A stretch of 64,000 bases of DNA from Alphaproteobacteria bacterium (GTDB taxonomy: Bacteria; Pseudomonadota; Alphaproteobacteria; RF32; CAG-239): NCBI GenBank assembly GCA_045221335.1, contig JBGUWS010000017.1:79737-143736 (forward strand), given 5' to 3'. Position 1 is the stretch's first letter, and every line of letters starts with the position of its first letter. Shown here one piece after another: positions 1,086-54,292 of the stretch. A program made the position numbers and the translations under genes. Below the pieces are notes generated by a model. That model did no database searches, had not been told where the DNA came from, and saw only the letters and a list, made by a program, of their open reading frames with translations.

Positions 1086-1979
1086 TCAATTAAGACTAAA
1101 TTCAATGATTTCGGTCGGCTGTCCTTGAGTTTTGCCTGTTTTATCGGGTAAAATCTGTACCTTCACCCTTTCAGCAGGGAGCTCCGGTGGCATTTTCAAT
1201 TTCTCACCGGGAAGCAGCGCTTTTTCTTCCTCAAGCATTTGCTCCGTTACGGGTATATCAAGCTTTTCGAGAGAGCATAAACCGTTTTCATCAGTGTCTG
1301 CATAAAAGCAATGATACCCAGAATCAGGATCTCCAAGGATAATACGCTCATCTCTATGAACGTCGTAAGAAGAAAATGCCGCACAATTGATACGTTCAGT
1401 AAATCTTGAGTCTACCGGAATGAATTCTTGTTCATTGCCATTTAACTCAACACACCAAAAAACACCGATATACTTACCATCATAAAGGTTGTATCCTTTT
1501 ACCGGATAGCATTTAACAGAACTGCCTTCATCAGGTGGTGAGCATAGCTCCTTAATGAGAGAGGCCTGGAGCAAATAGCGAATCCTTATCACAGCAAGAG
1601 ACTCATCACTAACAGTGTTCATATAAGGTAACTTGTTTCTCCAAAAGATAGCGTTTATTGGAACTGGCATTATCTCTTTATCTTGAGACTCCCAAAAGCC
1701 TTCCAGATCATCCATCTTAAAAACCGGTATAAAGCGGTTACTGTAGTAAAAGTCCCCATCATCCGGATTTTTTATTAAAAAAGCCCAGAAATAATCGGGT
1801 TGAAAATCAGGTGAATTGGGTATAATACGAACCAAGCGTATACGTACCTCTTGAGTTTTATACTCTCGCATTATATCATCAAGGACTTCATTCTTGATTT
1901 GAGTAGTACTGTAACACATCAGCTTAGGATCTTCAAAATCAAGCAGCCACGAAATATCGTCACTAGAATTATCCGCCAT
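1086..1979 (-). CDS. Orphan protein, paralog A of a tandem triplet
   Basis: ORF, likely ATG at 1979 (MADNSS). Shares PDYFW, FIPVFK and CYPVKGY..DGKYIGVFWC with the two neighbours. Confidence 0.85.
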   Translation of the reverse strand: MADNSSDDISWLLDFEDPKLMCYSTTQIKNEVLDDIMREYKTQEVRIRLVRIIPNSPDFQPDYFWAFLIKNPDDGDFYYSNRFIPVFKMDDLEGFWESQDKEIMPVPINAIFWRNKLPYMNTVSDESLAVIRIRYLLQASLIKELCSPPDEGSSVKCYPVKGYNLYDGKYIGVFWCVELNGNEQEFIPVDSRFTERINCAAFSSYDVHRDERIILGDPDSGYHCFYADTDENGLCSLEKLDIPVTEQMLEEEKALLPGEKLKMPPELPAERVKVQILPDKTGKTQGQPTEIIEFSLN

Positions 1980-2028
1980 AATAATCAAGTTTTAAATGAT
2001 TAACATTATGCTTATTTACACGCCGAAA

Positions 2029-2056
2029 ATTATAGAAAAGTTATTAAAAATGTCAA
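2029..2056 (-). promoter_or_regulatory. sigma70-type promoter of paralog A
   Basis: TTGACA-16 nt-TATAAT on the minus strand. Confidence 0.7.
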
Positions 2057-2090
2057 GGGTTTAAAAGCTAAACTAAGGTATCCTTAAACG

Positions 2091-2128
2091 GGCCAAGGGG
2101 AGAAGCATGGCGCTTTCTCCCCTCGGTC
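2091..2128 (-). terminator. 3' hairpin of paralog B
   Basis: GACCGAGGGGAGAAAGC...GCTTCTCCCCTTGGCC stem directly after the stop codon; weak U-tract (CGTTTAA). Confidence 0.6.
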
Positions 2129-2998
2129 TCAACGATTAAATTCAATAATGTGAGTTGTTTGTTGACTTTTCGGCTGTACGTTAGGTGGCTGAAATTCAAT
2201 GATGTTTGCTTGTGTTTGTTTTGGGGAATCTCCTTCCAGGGGAATATCCTCTTGCGCACGCAACTTCTTTGTAACTCGAATCTGTTGCTTCTCAAAACCA
2301 AACATGCCTTCTTCATCAATCTCTGCTTTGTAGAGGGTATCATTGATAATAGCATGATCTCCGTTACTAATCGGATAAAAGTAAGCATGATATTCACCAC
2401 TTTTCGGAAGTTTGAGCCTCTCTACCAGTTTTAAGTCAACCGGCATATAGAACTCATCGTCATCCAACTGAATGCACCAGAAGACACTGATATATTTCCC
2501 GTTATAAACATCATAACCCTTTACCGGATAGCAATCTATAAGTCGTCGTCCTTCCGGAATAGCAATATATTTGCGAACAAGATCTTCGCTAAACACCAGA
2601 CGAACCTTCGAAATTATAGTATCACAATCTTCTGTATAAGTAACGACATAGAGCTTACCCTCTCTGGGAAAGGGAACAAACGGGGTGACAGGTACAACAT
2701 CCTTAATTGACGGTATTCTGAAGTTATCAAGGTTAACCTTCTTAAAAGCCGGTATAAATCCGCGATAGTGGGTTTTGTCTCTCTCTTCCACGGATAAGGC
2801 CCAGTAATAATCAGGTTCTAACCCAAGCAACTTTGGAACAACGTAAACCAGGTCAACATAAGCACCTTCAGCAATGAGTTCAGGAAACTTGCTTGAGAAC
2901 ATATCATAAGCATCAGCATCACTTCCAACGGGACAATCACTGCTATCGTCAAGTTCAAACAACTCTCGATCTTTAATTTTACTCAAATCATCGGTCAT
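2129..2998 (-). CDS. Orphan protein, paralog B
   Basis: PDYYW, FIPAFK, CYPVKGYDVYNGKYISVFWC; duplicated IIEF tail. Confidence 0.85.
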   Translation of the reverse strand: MTDDLSKIKDRELFELDDSSDCPVGSDADAYDMFSSKFPELIAEGAYVDLVYVVPKLLGLEPDYYWALSVEERDKTHYRGFIPAFKKVNLDNFRIPSIKDVVPVTPFVPFPREGKLYVVTYTEDCDTIISKVRLVFSEDLVRKYIAIPEGRRLIDCYPVKGYDVYNGKYISVFWCIQLDDDEFYMPVDLKLVERLKLPKSGEYHAYFYPISNGDHAIINDTLYKAEIDEEGMFGFEKQQIRVTKKLRAQEDIPLEGDSPKQTQANIIEFQPPNVQPKSQQTTHIIEFNR

Positions 2999-3044
2999 AA
3001 TAATCGTGCTTAATTATTAACATTTGGCTATTTACTCACCGCAC

Positions 3045-3072
3045 ATTGTAGGATCGTTTTTCTATTTGTCAA
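3045..3072 (-). promoter_or_regulatory. sigma70-type promoter of paralog B
   Basis: TTGACA-16 nt-TACAAT. Confidence 0.7.
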
Positions 3073-3108
3073 GGGCTTTACCGCTCTATAATATTTCTTT
3101 TAAACGAC

Positions 3109-3141
3109 ACTGAGGGAAAAGCCTATAGCCTTTCCCTCAGT
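3109..3141 (-). terminator. 3' hairpin of paralog C
   Basis: ACTGAGGGAAAGGC-tatag-GCTTTTCCCTCAGT followed by GTCGTTTAA. Confidence 0.6.
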
Positions 3142-3146
3142 CATCA

Positions 3147-3923
3147 TCAATGCGAAATACGTAGTGCTCGCGTTCTGCTGGCATCATTCATCAAATCAGT
3201 ATCGTCCGTAATTTTGATTCCCGTACTCACAAAAGAAAAACCATCCTCGTTATAATCTGCCCTAAAGTAATATTTACCGATAACAACATATTCACCGTTG
3301 TTAATCGGAAGGCAATAAATACGAGAGTTCTTTTTTGTTTGTTTCAAATGCGAATCCACAGACAAACGAATGCATTCGTCCAAGGTCGGTTTAATAACCC
3401 AAAAAACACCGACATACTTCCCATCAGAAACACTGTACCCTTTCACCGGATGACAATCATAACACTCTCTTTTATACAAAAGTCGCATCATGTTAGCTAC
3501 CGTCTGCGTTGACAATAACATGCGCGGCTTCAGGAAAATAAGGTCATGATCCTGGCTTGACGTAATAACATAGGGTATACCCTGTCTTAAAATCATGCCG
3601 TCAAAAACAAGACTAACCTGGCATTTATCATAGGGTAACCTATGAAACCTATCCAGATAATCATTCTTAAAGACGGGCAAGAGATCTAAAACATAATCAT
3701 CCCCCATAGATATACAGAGCCAAAAGAAATCAGGCGGAATCTCATTTGAGATTGTACTGACATGCACCAAGTTAATCCTCATATCTTGAGGGGCAACCTC
3801 AGGGTGCAATTGACGGAAACGAGCAGAAGCATCAGAAAAACGGCCACAAACACAGTCAGATCCCGGTGGATCATATAGCCAAGGTTCACCGACTTTTTTA
3901 AGTTTTCCTAGATTTTTCGCCAT
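3147..3923 (-). CDS. Orphan protein, paralog C
   Basis: PPDFFW, LLPVFK, CHPVKGYSVSDGKYVGVFW. Confidence 0.85.
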   Translation of the reverse strand: MAKNLGKLKKVGEPWLYDPPGSDCVCGRFSDASARFRQLHPEVAPQDMRINLVHVSTISNEIPPDFFWLCISMGDDYVLDLLPVFKNDYLDRFHRLPYDKCQVSLVFDGMILRQGIPYVITSSQDHDLIFLKPRMLLSTQTVANMMRLLYKRECYDCHPVKGYSVSDGKYVGVFWVIKPTLDECIRLSVDSHLKQTKKNSRIYCLPINNGEYVVIGKYYFRADYNEDGFSFVSTGIKITDDTDLMNDASRTRALRISH

Positions 3924-3975
3924 ATTATAATAGTTTAGTTCGTAATAGACATCATTATTTCAACATCCGATGCCC

Positions 3976-4003
3976 ATCTTAAAGGAGTTTTAGGTGAAGT
4001 CAA
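3976..4003 (-). promoter_or_regulatory. sigma70-type promoter of paralog C
   Basis: TTGACT-16 nt-TAAGAT. Confidence 0.6.
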
Positions 4004-5605: not shown

Positions 5606-8413
5606 TTACCTTTGTAATCCGGAACTTAAAAACATTGTACTGGTTAAATCATAAACAATGTTTGCCGCACTACTTCTGGCCTCAGTTTGTGCTCTGGCTT
5701 TAGCCTCAGCTTCTGCTTTGGCAACAGAATCGTTGTATTGCTGTAGCTGCTTTTTGTATTGACTGACTTCTTTTTTGACATGTTTTTCAGCTACCCTGTC
5801 AATACTAAGACCGATATCGGCAAAATAACCCCCATTTCCGTAACGGGAACGAGACCTCATATATCTTGCAAATGTATTCTCATTTCCCCAGTGCTGATTG
5901 TTAAAAGCACTATAGGTATAAGCATCTGAAGAGGCTACTTCTGCAGGTTGGAAAAATGTCTGGTGGTGATATCGTCCATTTCCGCGTGGAGCCCAGCCAA
6001 AAACAATGGCATGCTTATTTTTCTTCATATAAGCTGCAATATCTTTTTGTAAATTTTTTGATTTAACAACAGTTTGTGTTAATGATGCTAAGTCATCTCT
6101 CAAGCTGTTGCAGTAGTGCACGTTTCTGCATTTATAAAGAATTTCTTTAACAGCTTTGGTAACCGGACTTTCCGGATTTTCTTCACTGAATTTATCAGTT
6201 GCCTGACACAAACTGGCAATACTCATGCCGGCACAATGGAGTCCGACAGATAGATTGGATAATCCGTACCGATGTAAGGCCTGATTGGCCTCTCGGAAGG
6301 TTTGGCTCTTTTGTCCGTGTTCCAATTTAACGAAATTATCATAGCAACATTGCATATAAATCCTAGAGAAAGTCTCTAAATCGCGATCTTTTCGTTGCGT
6401 TAGGAGGCTGTCATATTCCGCTACACCTAACAACTGAATGTCTGGAGTGCTAAAGAAAATATTATCAGCAAAGGACTGAGTATCAATATTTGATTTATCA
6501 TTGCCAAAAGTAGGTTCAAAGGCATAGAAAACATTGTCTTGATAAGGCTGATTAACAATCTTTTCTCCTTCAGGAAGCGTTACCGATCCATTTTGCAATA
6601 AATTGGCTCTTAACAGTTCAAATAATTGTCCTTCTTCTTTGGCATTAACAGATGTTTCGTTAATAACGGCAATCATTTGACGCCAATCATTGAGGCGAAC
6701 GCTTTTGCCTTCCGCGAGTTTATCCAAGGCCTCTTGCTGTGCTAAAGAAAGTGCTTTTCCTTTCACTTCATAAAAATCTGAAACACCTTGTGCTAAAGCG
6801 GCAATATCACTATTTTCTTCGTGTGCCAGGATATTATAGAGATAAGCAGCAATGCTTCTGTTATGCATAAATCCAATGTCATACTTATCATAAATCTGAG
6901 CTTTAGCAATAACTCGCGCTTGATCAAATGAAAGATTTTGATAACTCTTAATGCGATACATATTAGCCAGCGGCTTGTTCTCTTTGATAAAAGCATTATA
7001 CATAGCCAGAGAAATACCATATTTGTTCTGTTTTCCCATGGATTCGTTACTCTTATTAAAGCAGTAATTGAAGAAATCAACATTTGGAACGTGTGCTAAA
7101 GCATCGTTTCTCACCAAAGGGCAGGGAAGATTGTAATCATGTTGATCTAAAGCCTCTCCTTCTGCAAGCGTCTGCCAAAAATCAGATGTACCACTGACAT
7201 CAAGTGCAGATTGATCCAATAAATCTGGATGGTAAGTGAAGTCAGTAAAATCTGGACAAAGAAGTCTTGATCGTGCCATACGATCATTTTTAAGAAGAGG
7301 ACTGTTGATTGAACAGGTAATATTCTCCGTTTTAATCACAGGTTTTAAGGGATATAACTTTTGAAAAATACTGTATCCGCCAATAACAAAGGAAAGAGAA
7401 GCTGCAGCATATATCAAAGGCTTTTTATTTTTCTGCCAAAATTCCTTTTCATGGGAAAAAACTTTTAGTTTTGCTGGCTCTAAATATTTTTGAGGATTAA
7501 ACGAAATCTTTAACGGATAAGCCTTCAGTTTTTGCCAATATTCCTTTTGCCAGTGCAACAAGAGCCGACGCTGTAATTGATATTTCCTCTTGTAATCAGA
7601 GATGCGACGTAGTGCTTTTCGTTTTAGTCTATTCTTTTTAGCATATTGAACATTTAAGTCAAAATGTATACGGATATGAGGAATTTTAACTTTTTTAAGC
7701 AATTTCCGAGCCGTTTTTACGCCATAATCCTGAGCTTTTTTAACGCTATAAGAACGCTTTTTAGCTAAATGCTGTTTTTCAGGAGCAGTTTCCTGTTGAG
7801 ATGGAGTATCATCATGATGGGTATAATCATATAAAAACTCTCTTAAGGAGCCGTTATATCTTGATAAAGCCGTTTTAAATTCGACTTGATGTTGCTTTGA
7901 AACATGAAGACCATCTACAACCATCTGAAGAGAAAGATAATTAGAGTGTTTCCCCATCTTTTTAGCCGGTTGATCAATTAAGGCAAGACCTTCGTTATCT
8001 TTCAAATTTGATAATTTCAAAACAAGATTGTCAACATCAACAACATCGTTTTTGATATCTTCTTTTTCCTCAACTACCGGATATTCAAATTCTTTAAGTG
8101 CCCGAATAGAAATTTTCTTTTGCGCAATTTTTTCCTTAACCTCTGCAATGAGCATTTGGTGGGCTTCACTATAGGCAACAACATCTGGGAGCGATTTTTT
8201 CTCTACCAGTTCTCTGGCCAGTCTATCTTCTTTTCCAATATTCTTATATAAATATGTTCGAACAGCCTCATCATATTCTTCAACAAGGCGAAGATATTTA
8301 TCTTTATTATTTCTATATTCACTCCATGTTGGAGAAAGCCCCATAACATTCAATTTTTCAAGCATTTCTCCAAATAGCTTTTCATCCTGAGTTTTATTTA
8401 GAACTTTGGTCAT
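5606..8413 (-). CDS. Large single-pass membrane protein with GH108-like and putative Cys/His peptidase regions
   Basis: Basic region, one TM (LIYAAASLSFVIGGYSIF), KYGIS...NLSFDQARVIAK..IYDKY...IAAYLYN (GH108-like), and C-terminal LHCAG...HHQTF. The ORF is certain; the function is inferred. Confidence 0.55.
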   Translation of the reverse strand: MTKVLNKTQDEKLFGEMLEKLNVMGLSPTWSEYRNNKDKYLRLVEEYDEAVRTYLYKNIGKEDRLARELVEKKSLPDVVAYSEAHQMLIAEVKEKIAQKKISIRALKEFEYPVVEEKEDIKNDVVDVDNLVLKLSNLKDNEGLALIDQPAKKMGKHSNYLSLQMVVDGLHVSKQHQVEFKTALSRYNGSLREFLYDYTHHDDTPSQQETAPEKQHLAKKRSYSVKKAQDYGVKTARKLLKKVKIPHIRIHFDLNVQYAKKNRLKRKALRRISDYKRKYQLQRRLLLHWQKEYWQKLKAYPLKISFNPQKYLEPAKLKVFSHEKEFWQKNKKPLIYAAASLSFVIGGYSIFQKLYPLKPVIKTENITCSINSPLLKNDRMARSRLLCPDFTDFTYHPDLLDQSALDVSGTSDFWQTLAEGEALDQHDYNLPCPLVRNDALAHVPNVDFFNYCFNKSNESMGKQNKYGISLAMYNAFIKENKPLANMYRIKSYQNLSFDQARVIAKAQIYDKYDIGFMHNRSIAAYLYNILAHEENSDIAALAQGVSDFYEVKGKALSLAQQEALDKLAEGKSVRLNDWRQMIAVINETSVNAKEEGQLFELLRANLLQNGSVTLPEGEKIVNQPYQDNVFYAFEPTFGNDKSNIDTQSFADNIFFSTPDIQLLGVAEYDSLLTQRKDRDLETFSRIYMQCCYDNFVKLEHGQKSQTFREANQALHRYGLSNLSVGLHCAGMSIASLCQATDKFSEENPESPVTKAVKEILYKCRNVHYCNSLRDDLASLTQTVVKSKNLQKDIAAYMKKNKHAIVFGWAPRGNGRYHHQTFFQPAEVASSDAYTYSAFNNQHWGNENTFARYMRSRSRYGNGGYFADIGLSIDRVAEKHVKKEVSQYKKQLQQYNDSVAKAEAEAKARAQTEARSSAANIVYDLTSTMFLSSGLQR

Positions 8414-8496: not shown

Positions 8497-8532
8497 AAAA
8501 AAAATTCCCCGGGACCGAAGTCAACCAGGGAA
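8497..8532 (-). terminator. Intrinsic terminator of the lipoprotein gene
   Basis: Minus strand TTCCCTGG..GAC-TTCG-GTC-CCGGGGAA followed by T8. Confidence 0.75.
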
Positions 8533-8537
8533 AAATT

Positions 8538-10139
8538 TTAGAAAGTTTTAGTGCTACCATCGGGAGCTTTTAAAACAAGGCTGTAGTCAGTCTTGCTTAG
8601 AATGCTGTATCCGCTGACAGCAGAAGCATAATGTCCGTCAACGACATTTGCCCAACCGTAAATTTTACATGTGAGGGCATCGATGCCGGAGATCTGCCTG
8701 TTGTTTTCATCATACCAGATGATGTTGGCAGTTGTTTCAACCGCTCTTGCTAATTGGAAGGCCGAAGAAGCATTCTTTTTAGCGGCGGAATCAAAACTGC
8801 CAAAGTCTGACGTAGTAAAAGTAAATTCTGTTGGAAAAGCCTTATCGTAAGCACAAATTCCCCAATAGTAACCTTTTTCAAAGTGTACCAACACACATTT
8901 CTTAGTAATGGCACCTCCCTGGGTTAAGGCTGCTTGGTCAAAAACGGCTGATACGGCATATCCCAATACTTTACCATACCTGGAGTTTGGATCAGGATCA
9001 GGATCAGACTTCTTATTCATCGATGTTATCACCGATTTTCTAAAAGTCTTACCACCAAACACTACCGTTGCAACAGTGGTGTTTTTGGCTGATGATGAGT
9101 TAATGATAGCAATTTGCCAATTTTCCTTGAAGTCAATTGACAAATCGAATGAGAATCTCTCACCATCCCAATCCAAACTGGCCTCATAAAAAGGATAAGT
9201 AAACACGTCTTCAAAATATTCTTTTTGATTTGAGAACATAATGGTTTGCGTCGTCATACTCTTTTTTATGCGCCATTCTGAATTGCCAACATCTTGTTTA
9301 GCTCCAACGTTTGAGGACAAGCTTCCGTTGAAATCAAAGTTGGAGACTTCAATAGATCGCTGATTAGATGAAGTAAAGGGAAAATCAAGCACAGGAGAAG
9401 TTTTCTTGTAAACTTTCGTTCCCGAACTCCAAACTTCAGTTTTCTTGACATACAGGTAAAATTGCTCTGCACCTACCCATTCAAGTCCGCTTTTAGTTTC
9501 AGAATCGAGCAGCTTATCTTTTTGCTTAACTTCGGTTTTTTCGTAGCTAACACTAAGCCTTTGTGTGCCACTTTGATCCTTGTTACTGGTTTCCCAGACT
9601 AAGTCAAAGTCTATGTTAGCATAAGTTTTAGAACCGGCGGTTCTGATTGAGGATTCCATAAACAAAAGGTATTGTAACTCGACATGAGGGTAATACAATG
9701 ACCTTCCATTGTAATTATAGGAATAGAGCGGATAGCGAATCTCCGCGATGTAAATCTGATCGTCGTTAAAATAAAATTTCTGGTAGATCACCTGATACCT
9801 GGGATTTGTTCCTTCATACCCCGAGGACTTAGATGTGTTTATATGAATAGGTTTCGGATTATTCCCTGATTCATATTCAACCAGTTTTAACGTTGGATAG
9901 AGTTTTACCTCGCCGACAGGATGGATTTCTTTCCATCCTGAGTTTTCTTTGTAGCGGAGAGTTTGATTGCAATAGAGAATAAGCGTATCTCCGGATTGCT
10001 TCTGCGACCAAGAAAACTCGAGTTCACCACTTGTTCCGTTATTGCCCTGAAGACCGATAGAACCTTCGCCTTCACATGAGCACAACGAAACAACCATAAA
10101 CACTAAGGCGATAAAGCCTAAAAAAATGTTTCTGTTCAT
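8538..10139 (-). CDS. Putative lipoprotein, beta-rich, Bacteroidota-like
   Basis: Signal peptide with lipobox LCSC followed by acidic EGEG; Ser/Thr/Lys-rich beta-strand pattern; DPDPDP linker. Confidence 0.75.
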   Translation of the reverse strand: MNRNIFLGFIALVFMVVSLCSCEGEGSIGLQGNNGTSGELEFSWSQKQSGDTLILYCNQTLRYKENSGWKEIHPVGEVKLYPTLKLVEYESGNNPKPIHINTSKSSGYEGTNPRYQVIYQKFYFNDDQIYIAEIRYPLYSYNYNGRSLYYPHVELQYLLFMESSIRTAGSKTYANIDFDLVWETSNKDQSGTQRLSVSYEKTEVKQKDKLLDSETKSGLEWVGAEQFYLYVKKTEVWSSGTKVYKKTSPVLDFPFTSSNQRSIEVSNFDFNGSLSSNVGAKQDVGNSEWRIKKSMTTQTIMFSNQKEYFEDVFTYPFYEASLDWDGERFSFDLSIDFKENWQIAIINSSSAKNTTVATVVFGGKTFRKSVITSMNKKSDPDPDPNSRYGKVLGYAVSAVFDQAALTQGGAITKKCVLVHFEKGYYWGICAYDKAFPTEFTFTTSDFGSFDSAAKKNASSAFQLARAVETTANIIWYDENNRQISGIDALTCKIYGWANVVDGHYASAVSGYSILSKTDYSLVLKAPDGSTKTF

Positions 10140-10236
10140 ATTGGTATTTTTTTAATGTTGATAATCTGGCAAATCAGACCTTTATAAAAATATAACATAA
10201 ATTATAACGGCCATAATAAGAATTTATCTAGCGTGT

Positions 10237-10264
10237 ATCATATCAAATAAAAATAAAAAGTCAA
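10237..10264 (-). promoter_or_regulatory. sigma70-type promoter of the lipoprotein gene
   Basis: TTGACT-16 nt-TATGAT with extended -10 TG. Confidence 0.6.
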
Positions 10265-12093: not shown

Positions 12094-13155
12094 ATGAAAC
12101 CTCTAAGGATTGTTCATTGTGCCAATTTTAATACCATACGTCTAAAAGGCTGTTACATGGCTTCGATGGGCTACAAGCTGACCAATGGCTTAGTTCGTTT
12201 GGGCCATCAGGTTTTGCTTTATTCAGACAGGGATATGACGCGCACATTTGGTATTTTTGGCAAAAAGTGTCCCGGAGCTATTACAAAAAATAACAAAAAT
12301 TTTATAGAGTTTTGCTTAAATCTCAGACCGGATGTCATTTTTTTAGGACATGCAGATACCATAAGTCTCAAAACTCTTTTTTCCATTAAAGAGGCGATAC
12401 CTGATGTCAAGATAGTGCAATGGAATGTGGATTCAATTAATCCCTCATTACCGGAAGGACAACATAATATTGAAAACATCAAACAAAAGTTGCCAGCTGT
12501 TGATCTGACATTAATAACAACGGCTAAAAAAGATTTATTAAAAATCTTTGAACCTTCAAAACATAAGGTTTATTTTATTCCTAATCCGGTAGATCGCTCA
12601 ATTGAAACGGCACAAGTTTTCTCAAATCCAGATACAAAATATGATCTCTTTTTTGCGGCATCACCTAAAGTTAAAAGAGATGTCGGTGGAACTTTAATGG
12701 ATGGTGAGGAACTTTATAACTATATCAGCAGTAATTGTCCTAAAGCAAAGTTAATGTTTCCTAGGATAAATCATCCTTCAGCCGATGGTATTGCCTATTT
12801 AGAATTATTAAAAAATTCTGCCATGGTGTTAAATTTATCACGTACTGCTGATGACTATCTCTATTCATCAGACAGAATGGCTCATGCAATGGGTAACGGC
12901 TGTTTGATTTTTCAGGATTTAAGAACCGGTTTTCAGAATATTTTTAAAGAAGACGAAATAGCTTTTTATAGTACGCCAGAAGAATTGGTCAGCAAAATCA
13001 ATTTCTATCTTGAACATAAAGATCAAAGAATGTCTGTGGCCCAAAAAGGATGGCAACATTATTACGAACTGTTTAATGAAACAAGAGTAGCCTCTTATGT
13101 CTTATCTTTGTTAGACAACACTTTTAATCCTAAAGATTATCCTTTTTTTAGCTAA
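12094..13155 (+). CDS. Glycosyltransferase (GT-B, CgeB/YkvP-like)
   Basis: LNLSR...YSSDRMAHAMGNG...EELVSKINFYL...R..VAQKG C-terminal pattern. Confidence 0.8.
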   Translation: MKPLRIVHCANFNTIRLKGCYMASMGYKLTNGLVRLGHQVLLYSDRDMTRTFGIFGKKCPGAITKNNKNFIEFCLNLRPDVIFLGHADTISLKTLFSIKEAIPDVKIVQWNVDSINPSLPEGQHNIENIKQKLPAVDLTLITTAKKDLLKIFEPSKHKVYFIPNPVDRSIETAQVFSNPDTKYDLFFAASPKVKRDVGGTLMDGEELYNYISSNCPKAKLMFPRINHPSADGIAYLELLKNSAMVLNLSRTADDYLYSSDRMAHAMGNGCLIFQDLRTGFQNIFKEDEIAFYSTPEELVSKINFYLEHKDQRMSVAQKGWQHYYELFNETRVASYVLSLLDNTFNPKDYPFFS

Positions 13156-14096
13156 GCCTTTGAACGAAGCACGTTATCAAGTTTCTTAAAGCGCTGAGCA
13201 ATCTTTGCAAGATATAAAAAATCAGGTTTCAGATTAAGAAATTTAGCTCCGATATAGCGTAGAAAATCAATCGTCAAATAGGGATGCTTCATGTTCTTTT
13301 TAACATACTTCCAATTGGCAGATAAGGCTTTAGTATAAAGCTGTGATACGATATCTTTCTCTAACAGATGACCATAATCCAACAAAAAATTATAATTTGC
13401 AAAAAATCGATCATGATCAAGCTGAACGGTATTTTTACTTAAATTGTTTGTTTCTTTAGGCACCAAAACCACTTCGGCATAAATTTTAATAATTCCTTTT
13501 GCTAAACGAGAAGCGCGCAACGGAATAGTTTCATCTTGGATAAATACGCGTTCATCAGCACCATCAGCCTCTTGCAAAACCTTGCGTCGTATTAATTGTC
13601 CCATACGTGTAAAACGTCCTTTAAGTACGGTTCTTAAAGCATCCTCATGGTAAATAAAATCAAAATCTTTAGGCATCTTTTCATGACAAATAGCCATCGG
13701 CTCAAGGCCTGTCTTCTTAAAAGTCCCATAAACCATATCCGCTTTATGCTTTTTAGCTAATCTTATCATATTAATGGTTGAGTTTAGTGGCAAAATATCA
13801 TCAGAATCAAGCATTCTGACCCATTCTCCACGTGCTAACCGGATTCCTTGATTGATAGTAATGGAAATTCCTTCATTTTTATCTTTGGCAACGATTGTTA
13901 CATTTTTAATGTTTTTAGTTTTCTTTCTGATAATTTCAACCGAATTATCCTTAGATTTATCATCAATAAAAATGAATTCAGGGTTTTTAATCCCCGTTTG
14001 ATAAAGAAGTGCCTCCAGTACTGCCGGCAAATAATAGGCTTTATTATAAACCGTCATCACAAAAGAAACATCAATTTTTTCAGCCTTATCAATCAT
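13152..14096 (-). CDS. Glycosyltransferase family 2
   Basis: VSFVMTVYN, IDDKSKD, LDSDD. Confidence 0.9.
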   Translation of the reverse strand: MIDKAEKIDVSFVMTVYNKAYYLPAVLEALLYQTGIKNPEFIFIDDKSKDNSVEIIRKKTKNIKNVTIVAKDKNEGISITINQGIRLARGEWVRMLDSDDILPLNSTINMIRLAKKHKADMVYGTFKKTGLEPMAICHEKMPKDFDFIYHEDALRTVLKGRFTRMGQLIRRKVLQEADGADERVFIQDETIPLRASRLAKGIIKIYAEVVLVPKETNNLSKNTVQLDHDRFFANYNFLLDYGHLLEKDIVSQLYTKALSANWKYVKKNMKHPYLTIDFLRYIGAKFLNLKPDFLYLAKIAQRFKKLDNVLRSKA

Positions 14097-14165
14097 GAAA
14101 CTTACACTAAAAAATTACTTTCACAGGGTAAATATACCTAACATAAAAAAACAGGCAACAAAAAA

Positions 14166-14900
14166 TTAAAATTTTACACTTTCAATTTCAACACCATTTT
14201 TATATGTTGCTAAACGTGACAATCTACCTTCCTTATCAAACTCTTTGACTTTACCATGAAGTTTATCTTTTTTACGATAAGCCAAAACCTTTGGTTTATC
14301 ATTAGGATAATAAGAGTAAGAAGGACCATCGCGCAAACCTTTTACGTATTCGGTATAGCTGATAAGGTGATTATCCTTATCATAAATACGGGCCGGACCA
14401 TTTGGTTTATCATTTCTGTAAGTAATGGAGCTCTTAACACCACCATGAGGATAATATTCCTCAAACACGCCGTTTTTCTTTCCATGGATGTAACTGCCTT
14501 TTTGCATCAACATTCCGCTCTTATAATAAGAAGTTTGTCCGCCGTCTAATTTTCCATGTAAATAATTTTGCACGTCTTTTTCTTGTCCTTTGTCATAATA
14601 ACTGATACTTTTGCCTTCTAATCTTCCTTTTTTATATTGTGCAACAAGGATAGGCACTCCTTTGTTATTATAGGCCTTATAAATGCCGTCAATTTTACCG
14701 TCTACATAATGTATTTCTTCAAGCAGACGCATCTTTTTGGTATATTTTTGATAAACCCCCGTAATCGGTCGATGGTTTGCATCAAGCCTTAAACCATCCT
14801 CCTCAATTGATGTTTGATCATTATATAGCGTTGTTAACTGCGCAACGTGACAACCGCACAGCCCGAAAACCAGTACACTAATGTAAAATATTTTTGCCAT
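14166..14900 (-). CDS. MORN-variant (YwqK-like) repeat lipoprotein
   Basis: Lipobox LCGC; repeated Y..G..dG....YY..G units. Confidence 0.85.
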   Translation of the reverse strand: MAKIFYISVLVFGLCGCHVAQLTTLYNDQTSIEEDGLRLDANHRPITGVYQKYTKKMRLLEEIHYVDGKIDGIYKAYNNKGVPILVAQYKKGRLEGKSISYYDKGQEKDVQNYLHGKLDGGQTSYYKSGMLMQKGSYIHGKKNGVFEEYYPHGGVKSSITYRNDKPNGPARIYDKDNHLISYTEYVKGLRDGPSYSYYPNDKPKVLAYRKKDKLHGKVKEFDKEGRLSRLATYKNGVEIESVKF

Positions 14901-15113
14901 TTGATTAACCTTTCAACGACTTTCTATCTTTTAATAATTAAAAAAGTATAAAAAAATCAAAAATTATCAAAAAAAACATTGGATTTAGTAAAAAAAATTC
15001 TAAAACCTACCACCAAAATAATAGCCGCACCCCTTGTGACCAAAACAAGATTATAGTTGCTAAATCAATTAAAGTATGTCACAATGATGCCAAAAGATAC
15101 CAAGGAGAATGAT

Positions 15114-15863
15114 ATGTCAAAAACAAAAGTGTGTGTCGTAACAGGTGCAACCGGTAAAGTCGGTCAGCATTTATTATTACACCTGGTAGGCAAGGGCTAT
15201 AAAGTTTTAGCAGTCGGGGATACCGAAGATATGTTTTCTCCTGATGTCTTAAATAATCGCAAGATAAAGACAACAACGGTTCTGCCGATATCAGCTAAAC
15301 AGTTTAAGAAGTACGATGTCCAGTTTTGTTTTGGAGATATGAGTGATATTTCCTTTATGACCTCTGTGTTTCAGGCTGCAGATTTAGGTGATGTAGAAAT
15401 AGAGTCCTTGTTTCATTTATCAGCAAATCGGTTTATTTTACAACACAATCCATCAGCTTATCATCCGGAGTTTAGCGATACAGTTAATTTGCTTGAGCTG
15501 TCTCGAGCTTATTGGCAATCACATAAAGGAATTTTTAAGGGCTTTTTCTATATCACCGACAATCAATCAAAAGCCTCTGCAAAGATAGAAAAACTGATCG
15601 CTAAAATAAAAGAAAAGGATGATTTTCCGGTGATGAGCTATCGGGCAATACCACTTAAAAACATCGGTGTGAATTATCGTGGCAAAACCTCGCTTGCTTC
15701 ACTTTATCGGATAATAACTCCTTATAAAAATCTGACCACATCTCTGGCCTGGAAAAAACAAGCCGATGACGAGTTGACATATATCGCCGCGCTAAAATCA
15801 GTGGCAGATAAAATCTTAACGGCAATCAAAGAAGGACAGTCACTCCAATTAAGAGATGAATAG
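15114..15863 (+). CDS. NAD(P)-binding Rossmann protein, epimerase/dehydratase-like (divergent)
   Basis: VVTGATGKVG, GDMSD, FHLSA; SD AAGGAG; canonical YxxxK not obvious. Confidence 0.65.
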   Translation: MSKTKVCVVTGATGKVGQHLLLHLVGKGYKVLAVGDTEDMFSPDVLNNRKIKTTTVLPISAKQFKKYDVQFCFGDMSDISFMTSVFQAADLGDVEIESLFHLSANRFILQHNPSAYHPEFSDTVNLLELSRAYWQSHKGIFKGFFYITDNQSKASAKIEKLIAKIKEKDDFPVMSYRAIPLKNIGVNYRGKTSLASLYRIITPYKNLTTSLAWKKQADDELTYIAALKSVADKILTAIKEGQSLQLRDE

Positions 15864-15882
15864 TTCTTACTCAACGTATCAG

Positions 15883-16980
15883 TTATAGCTCCAGTCCGGA
15901 TGCCTTTTTGTTTACCAAATCACACGAAAGATCTCCATTAACGGAGCCTAAAGACTTGTCATCATATTCTCTGATAAACAATGATAAATTATGAAGAGCG
16001 GTTTTGGTTGCTTCAATTTCACTCTTATAAGGCGGATAAATGCTGTTTTCATAACGGTATTGCATATTATGATATATTTTATAAAGTTGCATATTTAGTG
16101 TTACGAATTCTGCTAAAGACAATGCTCGGTGTTCCTCTTTTTGAATAACATCATAAACGTTTTCCTTATTGGCAATACGAGAGTCGTAGAGTAAAGTGTT
16201 ACTTCTGTTTAAAACCACCAGGTCAACATCTTCAGCATGAGCTTTTTGAAAATTATCAATTTTTCCAATCATCTGAGGCAACATACTAACCACGCCGTTG
16301 AAATATTTACTTGAAACCAGTCGTGGATACAATTGCCGATGATTAAAAATAATTTCATCATAAAGCTTAGCACTGCGATAAATAGTACTCAAATAAGATA
16401 TTTCTTGAGGAACAGCCATATACACAGCCACAGGTCTGTAACCATATTGAAGAGCTTTTTTAGCATTATCTTCAAATTCTATACCAGCCCCCATGGAGCC
16501 GATAGAAAGTACTGAACATCTGCCGCTTTGAAGAGATAAATCAAGAATTGTTCGAACATAATCAATTGTGACTCCGGCAAATCTTTCACATTCATCAATG
16601 TGGCCATCTTTAAGGTGATTAAACAGGTTAGGAAAAATATCCCTATGATTATCTTTATCAATAACGTTAAAAGGAAGACAACTTTCCTCTTTGGCAAAAC
16701 GATCAATGAGCTTTTGCATCATTACGGATTTACCTGCACCGGGATACCCCCAATAAACAATAAACCGCCTAAATTCAGACGGTTTATTTTGTGCATTTGT
16801 TTCCTTAAATCTTTGTATGGCCTCTTTATAATTTGCTTGAGCTGTACATTCTTCTTTAGCTAATATATCTTGAACTTCTTTAGGTGTAAAGACAATATTC
16901 TCTGTACATTTAACATTTTCTAAGAAGTTTAATATATCATCAATTTGGTATAATGTCTGTGTTGCTGCATCTTTAATCAT
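15883..16980 (-). CDS. Zeta toxin (PezT-like) P-loop kinase
   Basis: Walker A GYPGAGKS, IDKDNHRDIFP and YLSTIYR...PRLV match the zeta/PezT pattern. Confidence 0.75.
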   Translation of the reverse strand: MIKDAATQTLYQIDDILNFLENVKCTENIVFTPKEVQDILAKEECTAQANYKEAIQRFKETNAQNKPSEFRRFIVYWGYPGAGKSVMMQKLIDRFAKEESCLPFNVIDKDNHRDIFPNLFNHLKDGHIDECERFAGVTIDYVRTILDLSLQSGRCSVLSIGSMGAGIEFEDNAKKALQYGYRPVAVYMAVPQEISYLSTIYRSAKLYDEIIFNHRQLYPRLVSSKYFNGVVSMLPQMIGKIDNFQKAHAEDVDLVVLNRSNTLLYDSRIANKENVYDVIQKEEHRALSLAEFVTLNMQLYKIYHNMQYRYENSIYPPYKSEIEATKTALHNLSLFIREYDDKSLGSVNGDLSCDLVNKKASGLEL

Positions 16981-17438
16981 TTGTCATACCCCATTTTTTT
17001 AAGTTGTTGAATAGTTTTATCAGCAGAGGTATGTAAAATACCAACCCCTCCCATTTCAATCCATTTGAGGATGTTATTTTCTCTATCGTCAATAAGAATA
17101 TCTCCCGGACGACCGAACTTTTGCTTATCTTTGGATAAACAGCAGATAACTCCATTAACAATACCATATTGTTCCTTAAGCCACTGTGTTTTCTCTTTTT
17201 GAGCTTTACTGTAACCATAGACGGGTAATCCGGTCAAAATTCGAAAATCGAAATTTTTAAGATAGCCGATCAGTTTATCCGCATCACGCATCTTGGGAAG
17301 ATTAACCCAATAATTATGGGTATTAATGACAATTTCCCATAATTCCTCTCTGGGGATTTTATAAGGCAAAACGCCGTGCTTTTTTTCAAAAGCACCGTCA
17401 AAATCAACCAAAACACCATCCATATCGCAAAATATCAT
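16977..17438 (-). CDS. HAD-family 5'(3')-deoxyribonucleotidase (NT5C-like)
   Basis: IFCDMDGVLVDF, ILTG, K..WL, DILIDDR...W...GG.GILH; SD GGAGG before ATG 17438. Confidence 0.85.
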   Translation of the reverse strand: MIFCDMDGVLVDFDGAFEKKHGVLPYKIPREELWEIVINTHNYWVNLPKMRDADKLIGYLKNFDFRILTGLPVYGYSKAQKEKTQWLKEQYGIVNGVICCLSKDKQKFGRPGDILIDDRENNILKWIEMGGVGILHTSADKTIQQLKKMGYDK

Positions 17439-17712
17439 CTCGTCCTCCCAATCTGATAAAATCATAGGAGGTAAATAAAAACATTTAAATGAAAAAAATA
17501 TTACAAAATATTATCTTTTAGTGAGTTCAAAAAAATTAAAAAAATAGTGTTGACATTTTATTTTTTTTACCTTACAAGCATCCGAAGTTTATCATTACTA
17601 AGATATAGATCGGGAAGACAATTTTTATGAAAATATAGTAAGGACCGTTACTAAGACTTGAGCTTAAAAATTTTTTTTACTTTTACTCATAATTTTTTAA
17701 ACGTAAACCTTA

Positions 17713-17752
17713 AAACAAGCCCCTGTCTTCCCAAAAGGAAGAACAGGGGTTA
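17713..17752 (-). terminator. Hairpin terminator downstream of htpX (possibly bidirectional)
   Basis: CCCCTGTCTTCC-caaaa-GGAAGAACAGGGG. Confidence 0.7.
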
Positions 17753-17777
17753 ACTTTATCTGTTAAATAATTAATTT

Positions 17778-18629: not shown

Positions 18630-18885
18630 AAATTAATTATCTTGGCATATATTAAGGCAGACGATTTTATTTAGCAAGCCTTAAGTAAGAAAAAATAACT
18701 GATTTTGACGATAATCAATATATTGTGGGTACAAAATAGCTTTACATTAAATTATGGCTTGACTTTATAAGTTTAAGAAGAGTATAACTACAGGATAAAG
18801 GCAGAATTTAAGAAACATTCTTTGATAAAGAGGTCAATAAAGGATGATAGATGTATTTAAGCGGGTTTTAAAGAGGTAACTTGGT

Positions 18886-19896: not shown

Positions 19897-19897
19897 G

Positions 19898-51292: not shown

Positions 51293-52108
51293 ATGACAAT
51301 TCAATCACAAACAGGTAAAGCGGCCTATGTTGCAGATGGCAACACCACAACATTTAACGTTCCGTTTTACTTTTTTGATAATCAGGTGTCGGTTTATATT
51401 AATGATAGTCTTACTCCGTTAGTATTAGGAACCGATTACACCTTAACCAATAACCAAGGGCATAATGGCGGGGAGGTGGTGTTATCGACAGCCCCTCAAT
51501 CCGGCACCAGGGTAACAATTGTTCGCAATGTGGAATTAACCCAATTAATTACCTTCTTAGAAGGGGAAAATTTCCCGGCATCGGATTTTGAATATGCCTT
51601 AGATAAGATAGTTATGGCCTTGCAACAGATACGCGATCGTTTAGAGTTATGTTTAAGTTTGCCAAACGGTTCAACTTGGCCGACAAGTGAAATATACCAG
51701 ATGCTAGACAATGTTCGCCAATATCAGGAAGCCATTGCATCAATACCGACCTTGCTTAATGAAATAAGCACGCTCGAGAGCCAATTTCCGATAGATTTAA
51801 GTAATTATTACACAAAATCAGAGGTAAACACGGCTATAAACAATGCCAAACCAAACAAGTTTACCAACGTAACGGCATTAGCCGCAAATGCAACTTCAGA
51901 TAATACCTATGCTTCTTATCCATATCGGTTGAGCATCAGTTTAGCAAATGTTACCTCAAATCAAATTCCCACGGTCAATCTCGGGTTAACAGAAGCCATG
52001 TCAGGCAACATTGCCCCGATAGCTCAAAGTTATAACGGAGGAGTGTATCTTTATCTCAAATCAGCACCACAAGAAAATTTCACCATTCCGAGCATTGTTA
52101 TACACTAG
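51293..52108 (+). CDS. Phage tail-fibre-like protein (podovirus-type N-terminal anchor)
   Basis: ADG.TT.F.VPF.F, L.LGTDYT, GG.V.L..AP..G..VTI.R, E.ALDK..M..QQ; YYTKSE motif. Confidence 0.7.
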   Translation: MTIQSQTGKAAYVADGNTTTFNVPFYFFDNQVSVYINDSLTPLVLGTDYTLTNNQGHNGGEVVLSTAPQSGTRVTIVRNVELTQLITFLEGENFPASDFEYALDKIVMALQQIRDRLELCLSLPNGSTWPTSEIYQMLDNVRQYQEAIASIPTLLNEISTLESQFPIDLSNYYTKSEVNTAINNAKPNKFTNVTALAANATSDNTYASYPYRLSISLANVTSNQIPTVNLGLTEAMSGNIAPIAQSYNGGVYLYLKSAPQENFTIPSIVIH

Positions 52109-52120
52109 GAGGCAGAAAGT

Positions 52121-52435
52121 ATGGAAAAACTGAAGGAAATTATCACCAGTTACAGCTTGTGGGGTTTATTTTTAGGTTTGATAACCATTATTATCAAACC
52201 TTTTATTTCGCTGCGACAGACATTACGAGATACGGTGATTACTTTTATAGTCAGTATGCTTTCAGGCTTAATGGCGGAATACATTGATATTCCGACACCG
52301 GTCAAATATGGACTTTCCGGTGTTTGCGGCCTGTTTGGTGTCAGACTATACATGATAATGGATGCCTTATTAAAATCGGCAGAAAAAAATCCCCTTCGTT
52401 TTTTCGAATTAATCAAGAAGAAGAAATCTCAATAA
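52121..52435 (+). CDS. Putative phage holin
   Basis: 104 aa, about three TM segments, basic KKKK tail, next to spanin-like genes. Confidence 0.65.
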   Translation: MEKLKEIITSYSLWGLFLGLITIIIKPFISLRQTLRDTVITFIVSMLSGLMAEYIDIPTPVKYGLSGVCGLFGVRLYMIMDALLKSAEKNPLRFFELIKKKKSQ

Positions 52436-52474
52436 AGAGGTTTCTTCCTCTCCCCATTTTTGGAAAGTAAAGAC

Positions 52475-52765
52475 ATGAAACAAGTAATATTGATGATTTG
52501 TTTATTAGCGATAATGATACTAACAATTGGTTATTATCGCGAAAAAGCCATAAAGAGCCAAAAACAAAATGAAATATATCAGCAAAACAATACAACATTA
52601 TTAAACAAATTAAGGAGGGTATATGATGAAAAAATTCAATTGGAAGAACAAAATCTGGAATTGGAAAAAAGAGCCAAAGAAGATAAAACATTTTTTGACT
52701 GGAATGCTGATATTTCTAACAGTGCTGTTATTAGGCAGTTGCGCCAAAACGCCATGCATCAATGA
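52475..52765 (+). CDS. Putative i-spanin (Rz-like)
   Basis: N-terminal TM plus coiled coil; a lipoprotein ORF overlaps its 3' end. Confidence 0.65.
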   Translation: MKQVILMICLLAIMILTIGYYREKAIKSQKQNEIYQQNNTTLLNKLRRVYDEKIQLEEQNLELEKRAKEDKTFFDWNADISNSAVIRQLRQNAMHQ

Positions 52766-52859
52766 GGAACCGCCCAAAGAACCGATAACCTGCATTGATA
52801 ACATCAAAACCCCATTAGACATGGCCAAATGTTTGAATGAATATAAGATAAAATATTAA
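52704..52859 (+). CDS. Putative o-spanin (Rz1-like lipoprotein)
   Basis: MLIFLTVLLLGSC lipobox; Pro/Cys-containing short mature part; +1 frame overlap with the Rz-like gene. Confidence 0.65.
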   Translation: MLIFLTVLLLGSCAKTPCINEEPPKEPITCIDNIKTPLDMAKCLNEYKIKY

Positions 52860-52933
52860 ATTTTGCACACTTTTTTTATTTTTCATATTGACATTAAAAA
52901 AAAATCTATGTAAATAACATCTCATCGTTAAAT

Positions 52934-53009
52934 GGCGGGATAGCTCAGTCGGTAGAGCAGAGGAATCATAATCCTTGTGTCGTGGGTTCGAATCCCTCTC
53001 TCGCTACCA
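52934..53009 (+). tRNA. tRNA-Met (CAT), elongator type
   Basis: GGCGGGATAGCTCAGTCGGTAGAGCAGAGGAATCATAATCCTTGTGTCGTGGGTTCGAATCCCTCTCTCGCTACCA; upstream TTGACA promoter. Confidence 0.95.
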
Positions 53010-53252
53010 ACAAAAAGGGGTGCCTTATAGGCGCCTTTTTTTTGTTGTAAATAAAAACCGGGGATTTGAACCCACGGGGTGGGTTCGACTACAAGCGAAA
53101 GCGAGACGGTAGTATCGCGGTCAGCTTTAAGCTGATGAGCGCCCGTGCGGCCGAGGAACGAAGGTCAATCCCTCTCTCGCTACCAACAAAAAGGGGTGCC
53201 TTATAGGCGCCTTTTTTTGTTGTAAATAAAAACTGGGGATTTGAACCCACGG
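52991..53252 (+). repeat. tRNA-linked direct repeat (87/86 bp copies, 176 bp period)
   Basis: 52991-53077 and 53167-53252 differ by one T and one C/T. Each holds the last 19 nt of the tRNA, a terminator and an inverted T-arm copy. Confidence 0.9.
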
Positions 53253-53333
53253 AAAAATATTGACTTTTCTGTTTGGCCGACTTATACTCACTCCATCAAA
53301 TCAAATAATTACGTAAATAAAATCTATATTTTT

Positions 53334-53738
53334 ATGGAAAATCCAACATTCTACATCACTGCGACGATTGACAACATCGCTTACAATGTCAAGAGTGGTT
53401 TTATTCGCTTTGAGCTGACAAATGTTGTCCTCACAAATCCCAAAAGGGAGAAGTATGACGGCTTGGTAAATTTTAGTGTTCATCTGAAAGACAAAAGAGA
53501 TGTTGATGGAGATATTTGTTTCTCAGATAATTGTGTATCTGACACTCTGAATGTCGGTGATAATGTTCAATTCAAGATCACCAAGTGCCGTGACATGTTT
53601 AAATATCACTATGAGATCACAAAGGTGGTACACAATTCGAAAAACTGTGGACAATACCAACAACAGGGGAGTGATGACACAAATATCCATATCCTGTCTT
53701 TCATTTTGGACAACGTTTCTAAAGCTTCCTCGTCTTAA
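53334..53738 (+). CDS. Orphan protein, possible OB-fold
   Basis: ATG 53334 after a TTGACT-17-TATACT promoter; beta-rich with LNVGDNVQFKI. Confidence 0.7.
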   Translation: MENPTFYITATIDNIAYNVKSGFIRFELTNVVLTNPKREKYDGLVNFSVHLKDKRDVDGDICFSDNCVSDTLNVGDNVQFKITKCRDMFKYHYEITKVVHNSKNCGQYQQQGSDDTNIHILSFILDNVSKASSS

Positions 53739-53757
53739 AATCTTCACAAATCTGTAA

Positions 53758-53793
53758 ACAAAGGGGCGTCACCTGACGGTGACGCCCCTTTGT
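53758..53793. terminator. Bidirectional terminator
   Basis: Perfect 16-bp stem ACAAAGGGGCGTCACC-tgac-GGTGACGCCCCTTTGT between convergent genes. Confidence 0.85.
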
Positions 53794-53815
53794 CTTTGTG
53801 AAAAAAACGGAACCA

Positions 53816-54292
53816 TTAATTTGCCCCCAATAAGGCCTTAAAAAAGTCATCAGGAGCAAGATTATCTCTGATATACTCCAGATCGCGCAGATGTACTTCA
53901 TCTCGAATGAGGGGAACACCTGCTTGGGATGATGCTTCGGTGGCGGTGTTGTAGGCCGTCATAATGTTCATTGCCGCATCGTTATAAGAGGATTCCTCAT
54001 CTGCATAGATATTGTACAAGCGTCGGATATAACCTTCGTCACTTTCCTTCGGTGATGACGAAAATGGCTTAAAATCTCTGTACGACGATACCTCCTCCAG
54101 AATAGTAAGCAAATTTCTACTTGGATTACTAAGCCACTTGCTGATTTGTTCATCCGAAGGAAAATAACCTCTTTTTGCAAGACAATAGGTAGCCGAACGT
54201 ACTATGCAACCTTTCGAGCAGCTAGCCAAAATGGAATAAACAGATGCTATAAAAGCTCTTACAGCATCATCAAAATCTTTTTTTTCAGTCAT
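53816..54292 (-). CDS. Orphan helical protein
   Basis: 158-aa ORF with its own promoter (TTGACC-17-TAGCAT) and terminator. Confidence 0.7.
   Translation of the reverse strand: MTEKKDFDDAVRAFIASVYSILASCSKGCIVRSATYCLAKRGYFPSDEQISKWLSNPSRNLLTILEEVSSYRDFKPFSSSPKESDEGYIRRLYNIYADEESSYNDAAMNIMTAYNTATEASSQAGVPLIRDEVHLRDLEYIRDNLAPDDFFKALLGAN

Follow-up and report, generated by a model that had tools for sequence, protein, structure and literature searches.

The trait that sets apart six genes starting at positions 1979, 2998, 3923, 10139, 53334 and 54292 of a 64,000-nucleotide stretch of alphaproteobacterial DNA is a fixed promoter-leader module, and not the lack of a Shine-Dalgarno (SD) sequence before their start codons. 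The stretch, called the window in the following, corresponds to C17:79737-143736 (contig JBGUWS010000017.1) of a genome of 23 contigs and 1.61 Mb with about 37% GC (GTDB lineage RF32; CAG-239), and the HtpG protein encoded in it is 65-85% identical to proteins of metagenome-assembled genomes from ruminant, other animal and human guts. In its full form, the module consists of a TTGACA element separated by 16 or 17 nt from a TAnnnT element, about 20 nt of intervening sequence, the 9-mer ATGTYTMAC, a TTAAA(W) box whose end lies 8-10 nt from the start codon and (A)TT directly preceding the ATG, with almost no G. The genes starting at 1979, 2998 and 3923 align into the module; the copy of gene 10139 is degenerate while those of its orthologs are full, and genes 53334 and 54292 carry weaker versions. 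The six genes probably represent a lineage-specific class of accessory genes, expressed from a family-wide module and started by a native, SD-independent initiation.

The module is recovered well beyond the window. Its strict form was defined as ATGTYTHAC, 0-9 nt, TTAAA, 6-14 nt and ATG, and the same pattern read backwards served as control. In the 36 genomes of the genus the pattern was matched 128 times against 17 reversed controls, with matches in 35 of the 36; in 151 genomes of the order the counts are 261 and 53 (controls counted by hand), with matches in 115 of the genomes and in 15 of 20 genera, and in 120 genomes of other families of the class they are 28 and 17. When one locus per genome was sampled, 27 of 30 matches were found to precede an open reading frame (ORF) of at least 60 aa, and 25-28 nt separate the start of the motif from the ATG in 24 of the 30 loci. 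The distance to the promoter is likewise narrow, 19-22 nt separating the end of the -10 element from the motif in 9 of the 10 loci with a strict promoter match. Among the matches in other families, those of G245 and some of those in G200 and G273 have the box fused to an SD. In G245 (for example at C4:9964-9995 and C30:210-242) six pattern matches and no control were counted, and the TTAAA box runs into the SD (ATTAAAGGAG and ATTAAAGGAA), an arrangement also seen in the leader of T7 gene 10. No description of the module was found in Rfam or in the literature searched: 27 kb of loci with the module, scanned by e-value, matched no Rfam family, the matches listed for the 9-mer held only unrelated mentions of primers or sequences, and nothing relevant was present among the matches listed for SD use in this gut lineage. 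A de novo motif search by expectation-maximization on 399 SD-less leaders was set aside, having drifted to generic A/T-rich patterns.

An alignment of 26 leaders (A4; three from the window and 23 from different genomes and genes) provides the logo of the module. No SD is present in 24 of the 26 and no G between -20 and -1 in 13, A stands at -13 in 81% and at -12 in 92%, and T at -1 in 96% and at -2 in 69%, the genome-wide frequency of T at -1 being 35-37%. Since the search pattern partly forces an A near -12, the positions were recounted on leaders chosen blind to their sequence. Among 13 orthologs found through their proteins, A is present at -13 in 12, at -12 in all 13, at -6 in 11 and at -3 in four, T at -1 in all 13 and the SD in none; among ten cassettes of an array on contig C9, described below, the corresponding numbers are 8, 7, 6 and 7 for A, 2 for T at -1 and 0 for the SD. 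The A signal at -12 and -13 stems from the TTAAA box. Moreover, the leaders of the orthologs keep the TTGACA promoter and, about 25 nt before the ATG, ATGTYTMAC with TTTAAAT, although their proteins are just 16-32% identical.

The initial annotation of this DNA had described the six as a separate class of orphan, monocistronic genes with promoters of the host and leaders of Bacteroidota type. The leader strings that it gave are exact, and no GGAG, GAGG or AGGA (the 4-mers taken as SD criterion, 3-12 nt before the ATG) occurs in any of them; the SDs that it listed for core genes are likewise present before dut (AAGGAG), psd (AGGAGG), htpG (GAGGAG) and the gene at 62001, putatively lemA (AGGAG). 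Its adenine counts hold as well, with A in 5/6 leaders at -3, 4/6 at -6, 5/6 at -12 and 5/6 at -13, that is, in 19 of 24 cells. When six SD-less genes of the genome are drawn at random, the mean is 11.2 A in these cells and at least 19 are reached with P=0.0033, and only 13 of 4845 four-position combinations within -20..-1 match or beat the A count at -3/-6/-12/-13. Genes 1979, 2998 and 3923 are tandem paralogs of about 30% aa identity with homologous promoters and leaders, so that the six amount to about four independent cases; if the paralogs are treated as one, 12 of 16 cells hold an A (P=0.033). The A-pattern of the six leaders is real and modestly beyond chance.

Absence of an SD alone marks no gene class in this genome. 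The 1327 genes and their starts were called in-house by a codon log-odds score, and a gene was regarded as conserved (510 of the 1327) when it had a tblastn match in G051, a complete and distant genome of the same class. The SD 4-mer precedes 53% of the first ATGs vs 6.5% of internal ATGs; it is present in 68% of the 241 genes with an unambiguous start and in 70% of all 1327 if any early SD-bearing start is accepted. Under three start rules, 74, 60 and 70% of the conserved genes have an SD, against 67, 49 and 64% of the rest (p=0.006, 3e-5 and 0.34). Very G-poor SD-less leaders precede 7% of the non-conserved vs 3% of the conserved genes (p=0.002); with unambiguous starts the figures are 9 and 7%, which is not significant. 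SD-less genes of the window that bear a Pfam family include a GT2 glycosyltransferase (14096), a Zeta_toxin-domain protein (16980) and an ankyrin-repeat protein (51052), and rpsA, encoding ribosomal protein S1, is SD-less in 30 of 30 congeners. The common SD-less starts of the genome agree with the figures for Caulobacter, in which 75.4% of genes have no SD and are translated as well as SD mRNAs (PMC4117421).

It could be argued from such figures that no class exists and that the six are draws from the roughly 30% of SD-less genes of an AT-rich genome, their adenines reflecting composition and paralogy. This would suit the 32% of unambiguous starts that have no SD, the frequency of A at every upstream position (33-51%; in SD-less genes genome-wide 46-47% at -12/-13), the paralogy of three of the six and, for unambiguous starts, the closeness of conserved and other genes in SD frequency (70% vs 64%, p=0.34) and in G-poor leaders (7% vs 9%). 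This account is nevertheless improbable, because the strict motif stands before 0 of 510 conserved vs 10 of 817 other genes (p=0.009), all ten of them SD-less, because matches to the pattern, at a fixed position relative to the ATG, outnumber the reversed controls by a factor of 7.5 within the genus and of about 5 within the order, and because the A counts surpass chance (P=0.003, or 0.033 with paralogs collapsed) and the leaders are conserved where the proteins have diverged to 16-32% identity. The ATGTYTMAC box is also found upstream of unrelated genes in this genome, and 9 of 10 module genes tested have no Pfam family. What stands of the proposed class is a monocistronic, unannotated set with strong sigma70-type promoters and G-poor leaders, and what falls is SD-lessness alone as its definition: 26-40% of conserved genes are SD-less, yet none of the 510 has the strict module.

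Related leaders also occur in series. At C9:146.5-158.5 kb, a 12-kb array holds ten same-strand monocistronic cassettes of 125-605 aa with near-identical junctions, each made of a GC terminator hairpin, a T-run, a TTGACAAAA -35 element, a gaTACACT -10 element and an AT-rich SD-less leader; the ATGTYTMAC box is present in some of these junctions. The seven of the ten cassettes that were scanned have no Pfam, PHROGs or PADLOC match, and neither a tRNA nor an integrase was found within the 12 kb. As strings of small unannotated genes with conserved junctions, they are similar to integron cassette arrays. Integron cassettes are usually promoterless, and the comparison was abandoned because no integrase is nearby and every C9 cassette has its own TTGACA promoter and terminator. 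Furthermore, unlike the members of cassette arrays, four of the six window genes keep a stable, syntenic location throughout the genus.

These four are, to judge from their distribution, long-standing genes of the genus, vertically shared and syntenic. In a protein search of 35 congeners and 25 genomes of other genera, the paralog family 1979/2998/3923 was found in 25 of the former and in none of the latter, and the lipoprotein starting at 10139 in 30 and none, respectively, with the same neighbourhood and often a few kb from the paralog family. The term orphan, applied to all six, is accurate in that no Pfam, PHROGs or PADLOC family was assigned to any of them and inaccurate in that these four have homologs in congeners. 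For gene 53334 one partial homolog was found among 5.8 billion proteins and none in the 60 relatives, and phmmer did not link it to other ORFs of the genome; for gene 54292 no homolog was found in either set. The position of these two genes just past a repeat of the 3' end of a tRNA-Met suggests insertion at that tRNA: the 3' end of the tRNA-Met gene (52934-53009, plus strand) and its terminator are present twice, as an 87-nt direct repeat (52991-53077 and 53167-53252), with T-arm-complementary segments at 53061-53076 and 53236-53251, and the region 52934-53252 looks like an att-type integration scar. A minus-strand tRNA-like remnant, not called by ARAGORN, lies between the 87-nt repeats. No integrase was found by the tRNA-Met or the C9 array, the three tyrosine recombinases of the genome being on C6 and C18. 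The codon use of all six is atypical (3rd-19th percentile; GC content at third codon positions 0.36-0.44 vs 0.32).

The six leaders had been interpreted as tuned for the SD-blind ribosomes of Bacteroidota, the genes being either captured or, more speculatively, transcribed into mRNAs destined for a Bacteroidota host or prey. The likeness itself is confirmed for the adenines at -12/-13 and less so at -6 and -3: in the Bacteroidia (Baez 2019, PMC6847099) the SD is also missing, A is favoured at -3, -6, -12 and -13 and structure is low, and the same adenines, which are positive determinants in F. johnsoniae (PMC6847099), are above background here. Codon use is atypical as well, and the organism lives in Bacteroidota-rich guts, a circumstance counted as background and not as evidence. 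Nevertheless, a capture, destination or tuning of this kind is extremely improbable. The module is family-wide in these Alphaproteobacteria, the genes are restricted to the genus (four of them vertically shared within it) or unique, and no named or Bacteroidota homolog of any of the six was recovered; this absence is weak evidence, since most metagenomic homologs have no taxon label. The promoters are of the TTGACA/TAnnnT sigma70 type and not TAnnTTTG, as had been said before, each of the six having its own (scores 9/12 to 12/12; spacer of 16 nt in four and 17 nt in two). Moreover, SD-lessness is genome-wide in the Bacteroidia and their anti-SD is sequestered by bS21, bS18 and bS6, whereas about 68% of genes have an SD here; the anti-SD, whose inspection had been suggested as a check, is canonical in the 16S of three congeners, which ends ..GGATCACCTCCTTTC. 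The Bacteroidetes avoid AUG near starts (PMC6847099), whereas the module leaders conserve an upstream ATG; T at -1 (96% of pattern-selected leaders, though 2/10 of C9 cassettes) is a further difference. Finally, SD-independent initiation is native to Alphaproteobacteria (PMC4117421), and no mechanism of mRNA transfer is known.

With regard to its nature, the element is a primary-sequence motif. The six leaders fold no better than their shuffles (z -1.0 to +1.1), and RNAalifold on the 26 aligned leaders found no consensus pair. Pairing with 16S was rejected as an explanation, as the three congener 16S genes complement variants of the motif at best with 1-3 mismatches in 9; readings as a CtrA box or a palindrome were discarded by inspection because of unfit spacing. 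An ATG is found upstream in 26 of 26 aligned leaders, 25-32 nt before the start (in gene 54292 at -13). This invariance, together with the 4-codon ORF ending in the TTAAA box in 10 of 26, could suggest that the upstream ATG starts a mini-ORF and that the main ORF is reached by termination-reinitiation or 70S scanning. We regard this as very improbable: 10 of 26 leaders have no in-frame stop in the stretch examined (which ends 9 nt after the A of the main ATG), the frame of the upstream ATG shows no excess of stops (15/26, vs 14 and 17/26 in the other frames), the TTAAA box tolerates one-base shifts and the upstream ATG itself has no SD.

Two bovine-gut runs labelled metatranscriptomic (X1 and X2) contain contigs at least 99% identical to four of the genes: in X1 these cover 1114-2007 (overlapping paralog 1), 2155-3019 (paralog 2), 3178-3908 (paralog 3) and 8695-10145 (the lipoprotein gene), and in X2 pieces of 2306-3816, with a contig at 2306-2493 in paralog 2 and others within 3166-3816 in paralog 3. 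Each contig is confined to one gene plus 6-28 nt of leader, the part before the ATG being 28, 21 and 6 nt long, and the transcribed or assembled units thus include the leader box for two genes. The idea that the motif is the -10 element of leaderless transcripts was dismissed: for two genes, contigs extend past the start codon into the upstream region by 21-28 nt, and about 20 nt upstream of the motif there is a separate promoter, TTGACA-17-TAnnnT. The neighbouring trkH and a 935-aa gene have no contig cover in X1 or X2, which carries no evidential weight.

The polymerase of the cell itself probably transcribes the module genes, as their promoters indicate. If the module serves initiation, as we suppose, the cell's own ribosomes, which use an SD on about two thirds of genes, would most likely start translation of these mRNAs on the A/U-rich and unstructured leader, with no SD to pair with. 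By analogy with the leader of T7 gene 10, the upstream box may act as an A/U-rich enhancer or standby site, perhaps via bS1, and the adenine tract at the position of the SD may help initiation; the likeness to the Bacteroidia would then be a convergence on adenine-rich SD-free initiation. Adenines at -3 and -6 act in E. coli too (PMC6847099). The genome contains a full-length rpsA and a bS21 gene. The latter protein also occurs in E. coli.

The closest known relatives of the arrangement differ from it in instructive ways. In Caulobacter crescentus non-SD mRNAs (PMC4117421), which are alphaproteobacterial as well, a 5'-UTR, the missing SD, a canonical anti-SD and an unstructured start are all shared; no abundant motif is reported to explain initiation there, whereas here a module of about 30 nt recurs, and only on accessory genes of an organism with mostly SD genes. 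In the T7 gene-10 leader (NC_001604), an A/U-rich box with GTTTAACTTTAA precedes the ATG by about 25-28 nt, and 13 nt of it, TGTTTAACTTTAA, are identical in the congener leader L185, where their distance to the ATG is similar. For the T7 enhancer, 16S pairing has been discounted and an action through binding of S1 proposed (PMC8748333). In addition, the SD follows the box directly in T7 and is missing in 24 of 26 module leaders, and the box here, a chromosomal element present across the lineage, has a conserved ATG at its beginning. A link to S1 autoregulation was considered and dropped: ATGTTTAAC stands 61 nt upstream of rpsA in this genome, but in just 1 of 30 congeners. As an observation apart, the rpsA leader (about 100 nt, SD-less) is strongly conserved in 30 of 30 congeners, with the blocks ..GCACAAGTCCGCC..GAGGGTCTGGCATTTTTTGAAAATAAA..ATG (L269:1330-1461 on contig C2; L271-L299), and by comparison with E. 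coli rpsA it may be an autoregulatory structure.

A serious alternative, compatible with native SD-free initiation, is that the box is a regulatory site, bound by a lineage-specific RNA-binding protein, small RNA or DNA-binding repressor at ATGTYTMAC...TTAAA (about +14 to +35 of the transcript), which co-regulates an accessory regulon and to which SD-lessness is incidental. The fixed distance of the motif from the -10 element (19-22 nt at 9/10 promoters) as well as from the ATG, its strand-specific primary sequence without secondary structure, its restriction to non-conserved genes and its occurrence beside an SD in other lineages (G245, G200 and G273), by which it is not simply an SD substitute, are all in accordance with such a site, as is the missing Rfam match. 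We consider this rather unlikely, given that no candidate regulator was identified, that the motif is not palindromic and that TTAAA at the usual position of the SD, together with the conserved A-rich, T-1 start context, points to initiation.

Several points count against native SD-free initiation from the module. The translational role of the motif is deduced from sequence, and since the motif keeps a fixed spacing from both promoter and ATG, a regulatory site at the DNA or transcript level fits equally. The genes and starts rest on a crude in-house caller and the status of conserved gene on the single distant genome G051, and the atypical codon use allows a foreign or mobile origin. No 16S gene was found in this assembly; that of congeners complements the motif by at most 7-8 of 9 positions. 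Moreover, the T7 enhancer is dispensable for expression in the alphaproteobacterium A. fabrum (PMC8748333), and the 9-mer in the rpsA leader, present in just 1/30 congeners, leaves the link to S1 without comparative support. As for expression, RNA ends cannot be read from contigs, and run X1 carries the flag 'probably DNA'.

A broader proposal is made tentatively, namely that two initiation signals may operate in the family: most genes would use the SD, and mobile or fast-evolving accessory genes would have a dedicated module without one, recognised either by the ribosome, perhaps with the help of bS1, or by a factor specific to the lineage. If true, the accessory genome would possess in this module a natural expression cassette of the plug-and-play kind or a switch acting on a whole regulon. 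SD-independent initiation is widespread and usually comes without a recognisable sequence signal, whereas a sharply defined, lineage-wide SD-free leader is present here in a bacterium that uses the SD, and by means of it one can test what brings ribosomes to an mRNA that has no SD. The module is, in addition, a practical tag for accessory and cassette genes in uncultured gut Alphaproteobacteria, and it teaches caution, in that A-rich SD-less leaders should not be read as a signature of Bacteroidota.

The individual genes, promoters and leaders are arranged as follows. Tandem paralog 1, of a genus-restricted family without a Pfam family, is an ORF of 297 aa at 1086-1979 on the minus strand, preceded within 1980-2056 by the promoter TTGACA-16-TATAAT (2056-2029, 12/12) and an SD-less leader of about 43 nt, which holds the motif variant ATGTTAATC at 2006-1998 and a TTTAAAA box at 1996-1990, then ATT-ATG. 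Paralog 2 (289 aa, 2129-2998, minus strand) has the promoter TTGACA-16-TACAAT (3072-3045, 11/12) and an SD-less leader with ATGTTAATA, TTAAG and ATT-ATG within 2999-3072; paralog 3 (258 aa, 3147-3923, minus strand) has TTGACT-16-TAAGAT (4003-3976, 9/12) and an SD-less leader with ATGTCTATT, CTAAA and AAT-ATG within 3924-4003. In the paralog family, the residues W66, P83, F85, R133, P158, V159 and W174 are invariant. An AF2 model of the family of paralog 2 (alignment A3) has a pLDDT of 78 and two beta-rich domains, and no fold in the PDB matched it (best TM 0.17, E 0.008).

The ORF of 533 aa at 8538-10139 (minus strand), of another genus-restricted family, is a predicted lipoprotein whose signal peptide ends in ..SLCSC. 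The region upstream of it (10140-10264) contains the promoter TTGACT-16-TATGAT (10264-10237, 10/12), an alternative TAGATA-18-TATAAT at 10230-10201 and an A-rich, SD-less leader with the degenerate motif ATTATCAAC-ATTAAAAAAA. On the plus strand, the promoter TTGACT-17-TATACT (53260-53288, 10/12) and an SD-less leader occupy 53260-53333 in front of the 134-aa ORF at 53334-53738. The convergent 158-aa ORF at 53816-54292 (minus strand) has the promoter TTGACC-17-TAGCAT (54370-54342, 9/12, with TG preceding the -10 element) and an SD-less leader within 54293-54370, in which ATGTTTAAT lies directly against the start codon and CTAAC-TAAGA at about -26. Between the two genes, a perfect 16-bp inverted repeat with a 4-nt loop (53758-53793) is likely their shared terminator. 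As to the 3' hairpins that had been assigned to all six genes, one can be seen by reading after each of them, including a GC-rich hairpin 3' of paralog 2 (2095-2125, minus strand) and similar ones at about 1040-1085, 3110-3140 and 8497-8520; a strict terminator rule of hairpin plus T-run was passed only at 8520-8507.

Some further features of the window were recorded. A seventh SD-less ORF without a Pfam, PHROGs or PADLOC family, of 935 aa (5606-8413, minus strand) and without a paralog in the genome, lies between trkH and the lipoprotein gene and was missing from the earlier list. Three small genes upstream of the tRNA-Met (51293-52765), one with a T7 tail-fibre N-terminal domain (E 1.6e-6) and one with a weak holin-like match, suggest a prophage remnant. 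Finally, a large glycosyltransferase cluster, in which GC drops to 0.30-0.33, extends from 12094 to 29650 and comprises GT2, GT10 fucosyltransferase-like and RgpF-like genes, one of them fused to a kinase-like domain.

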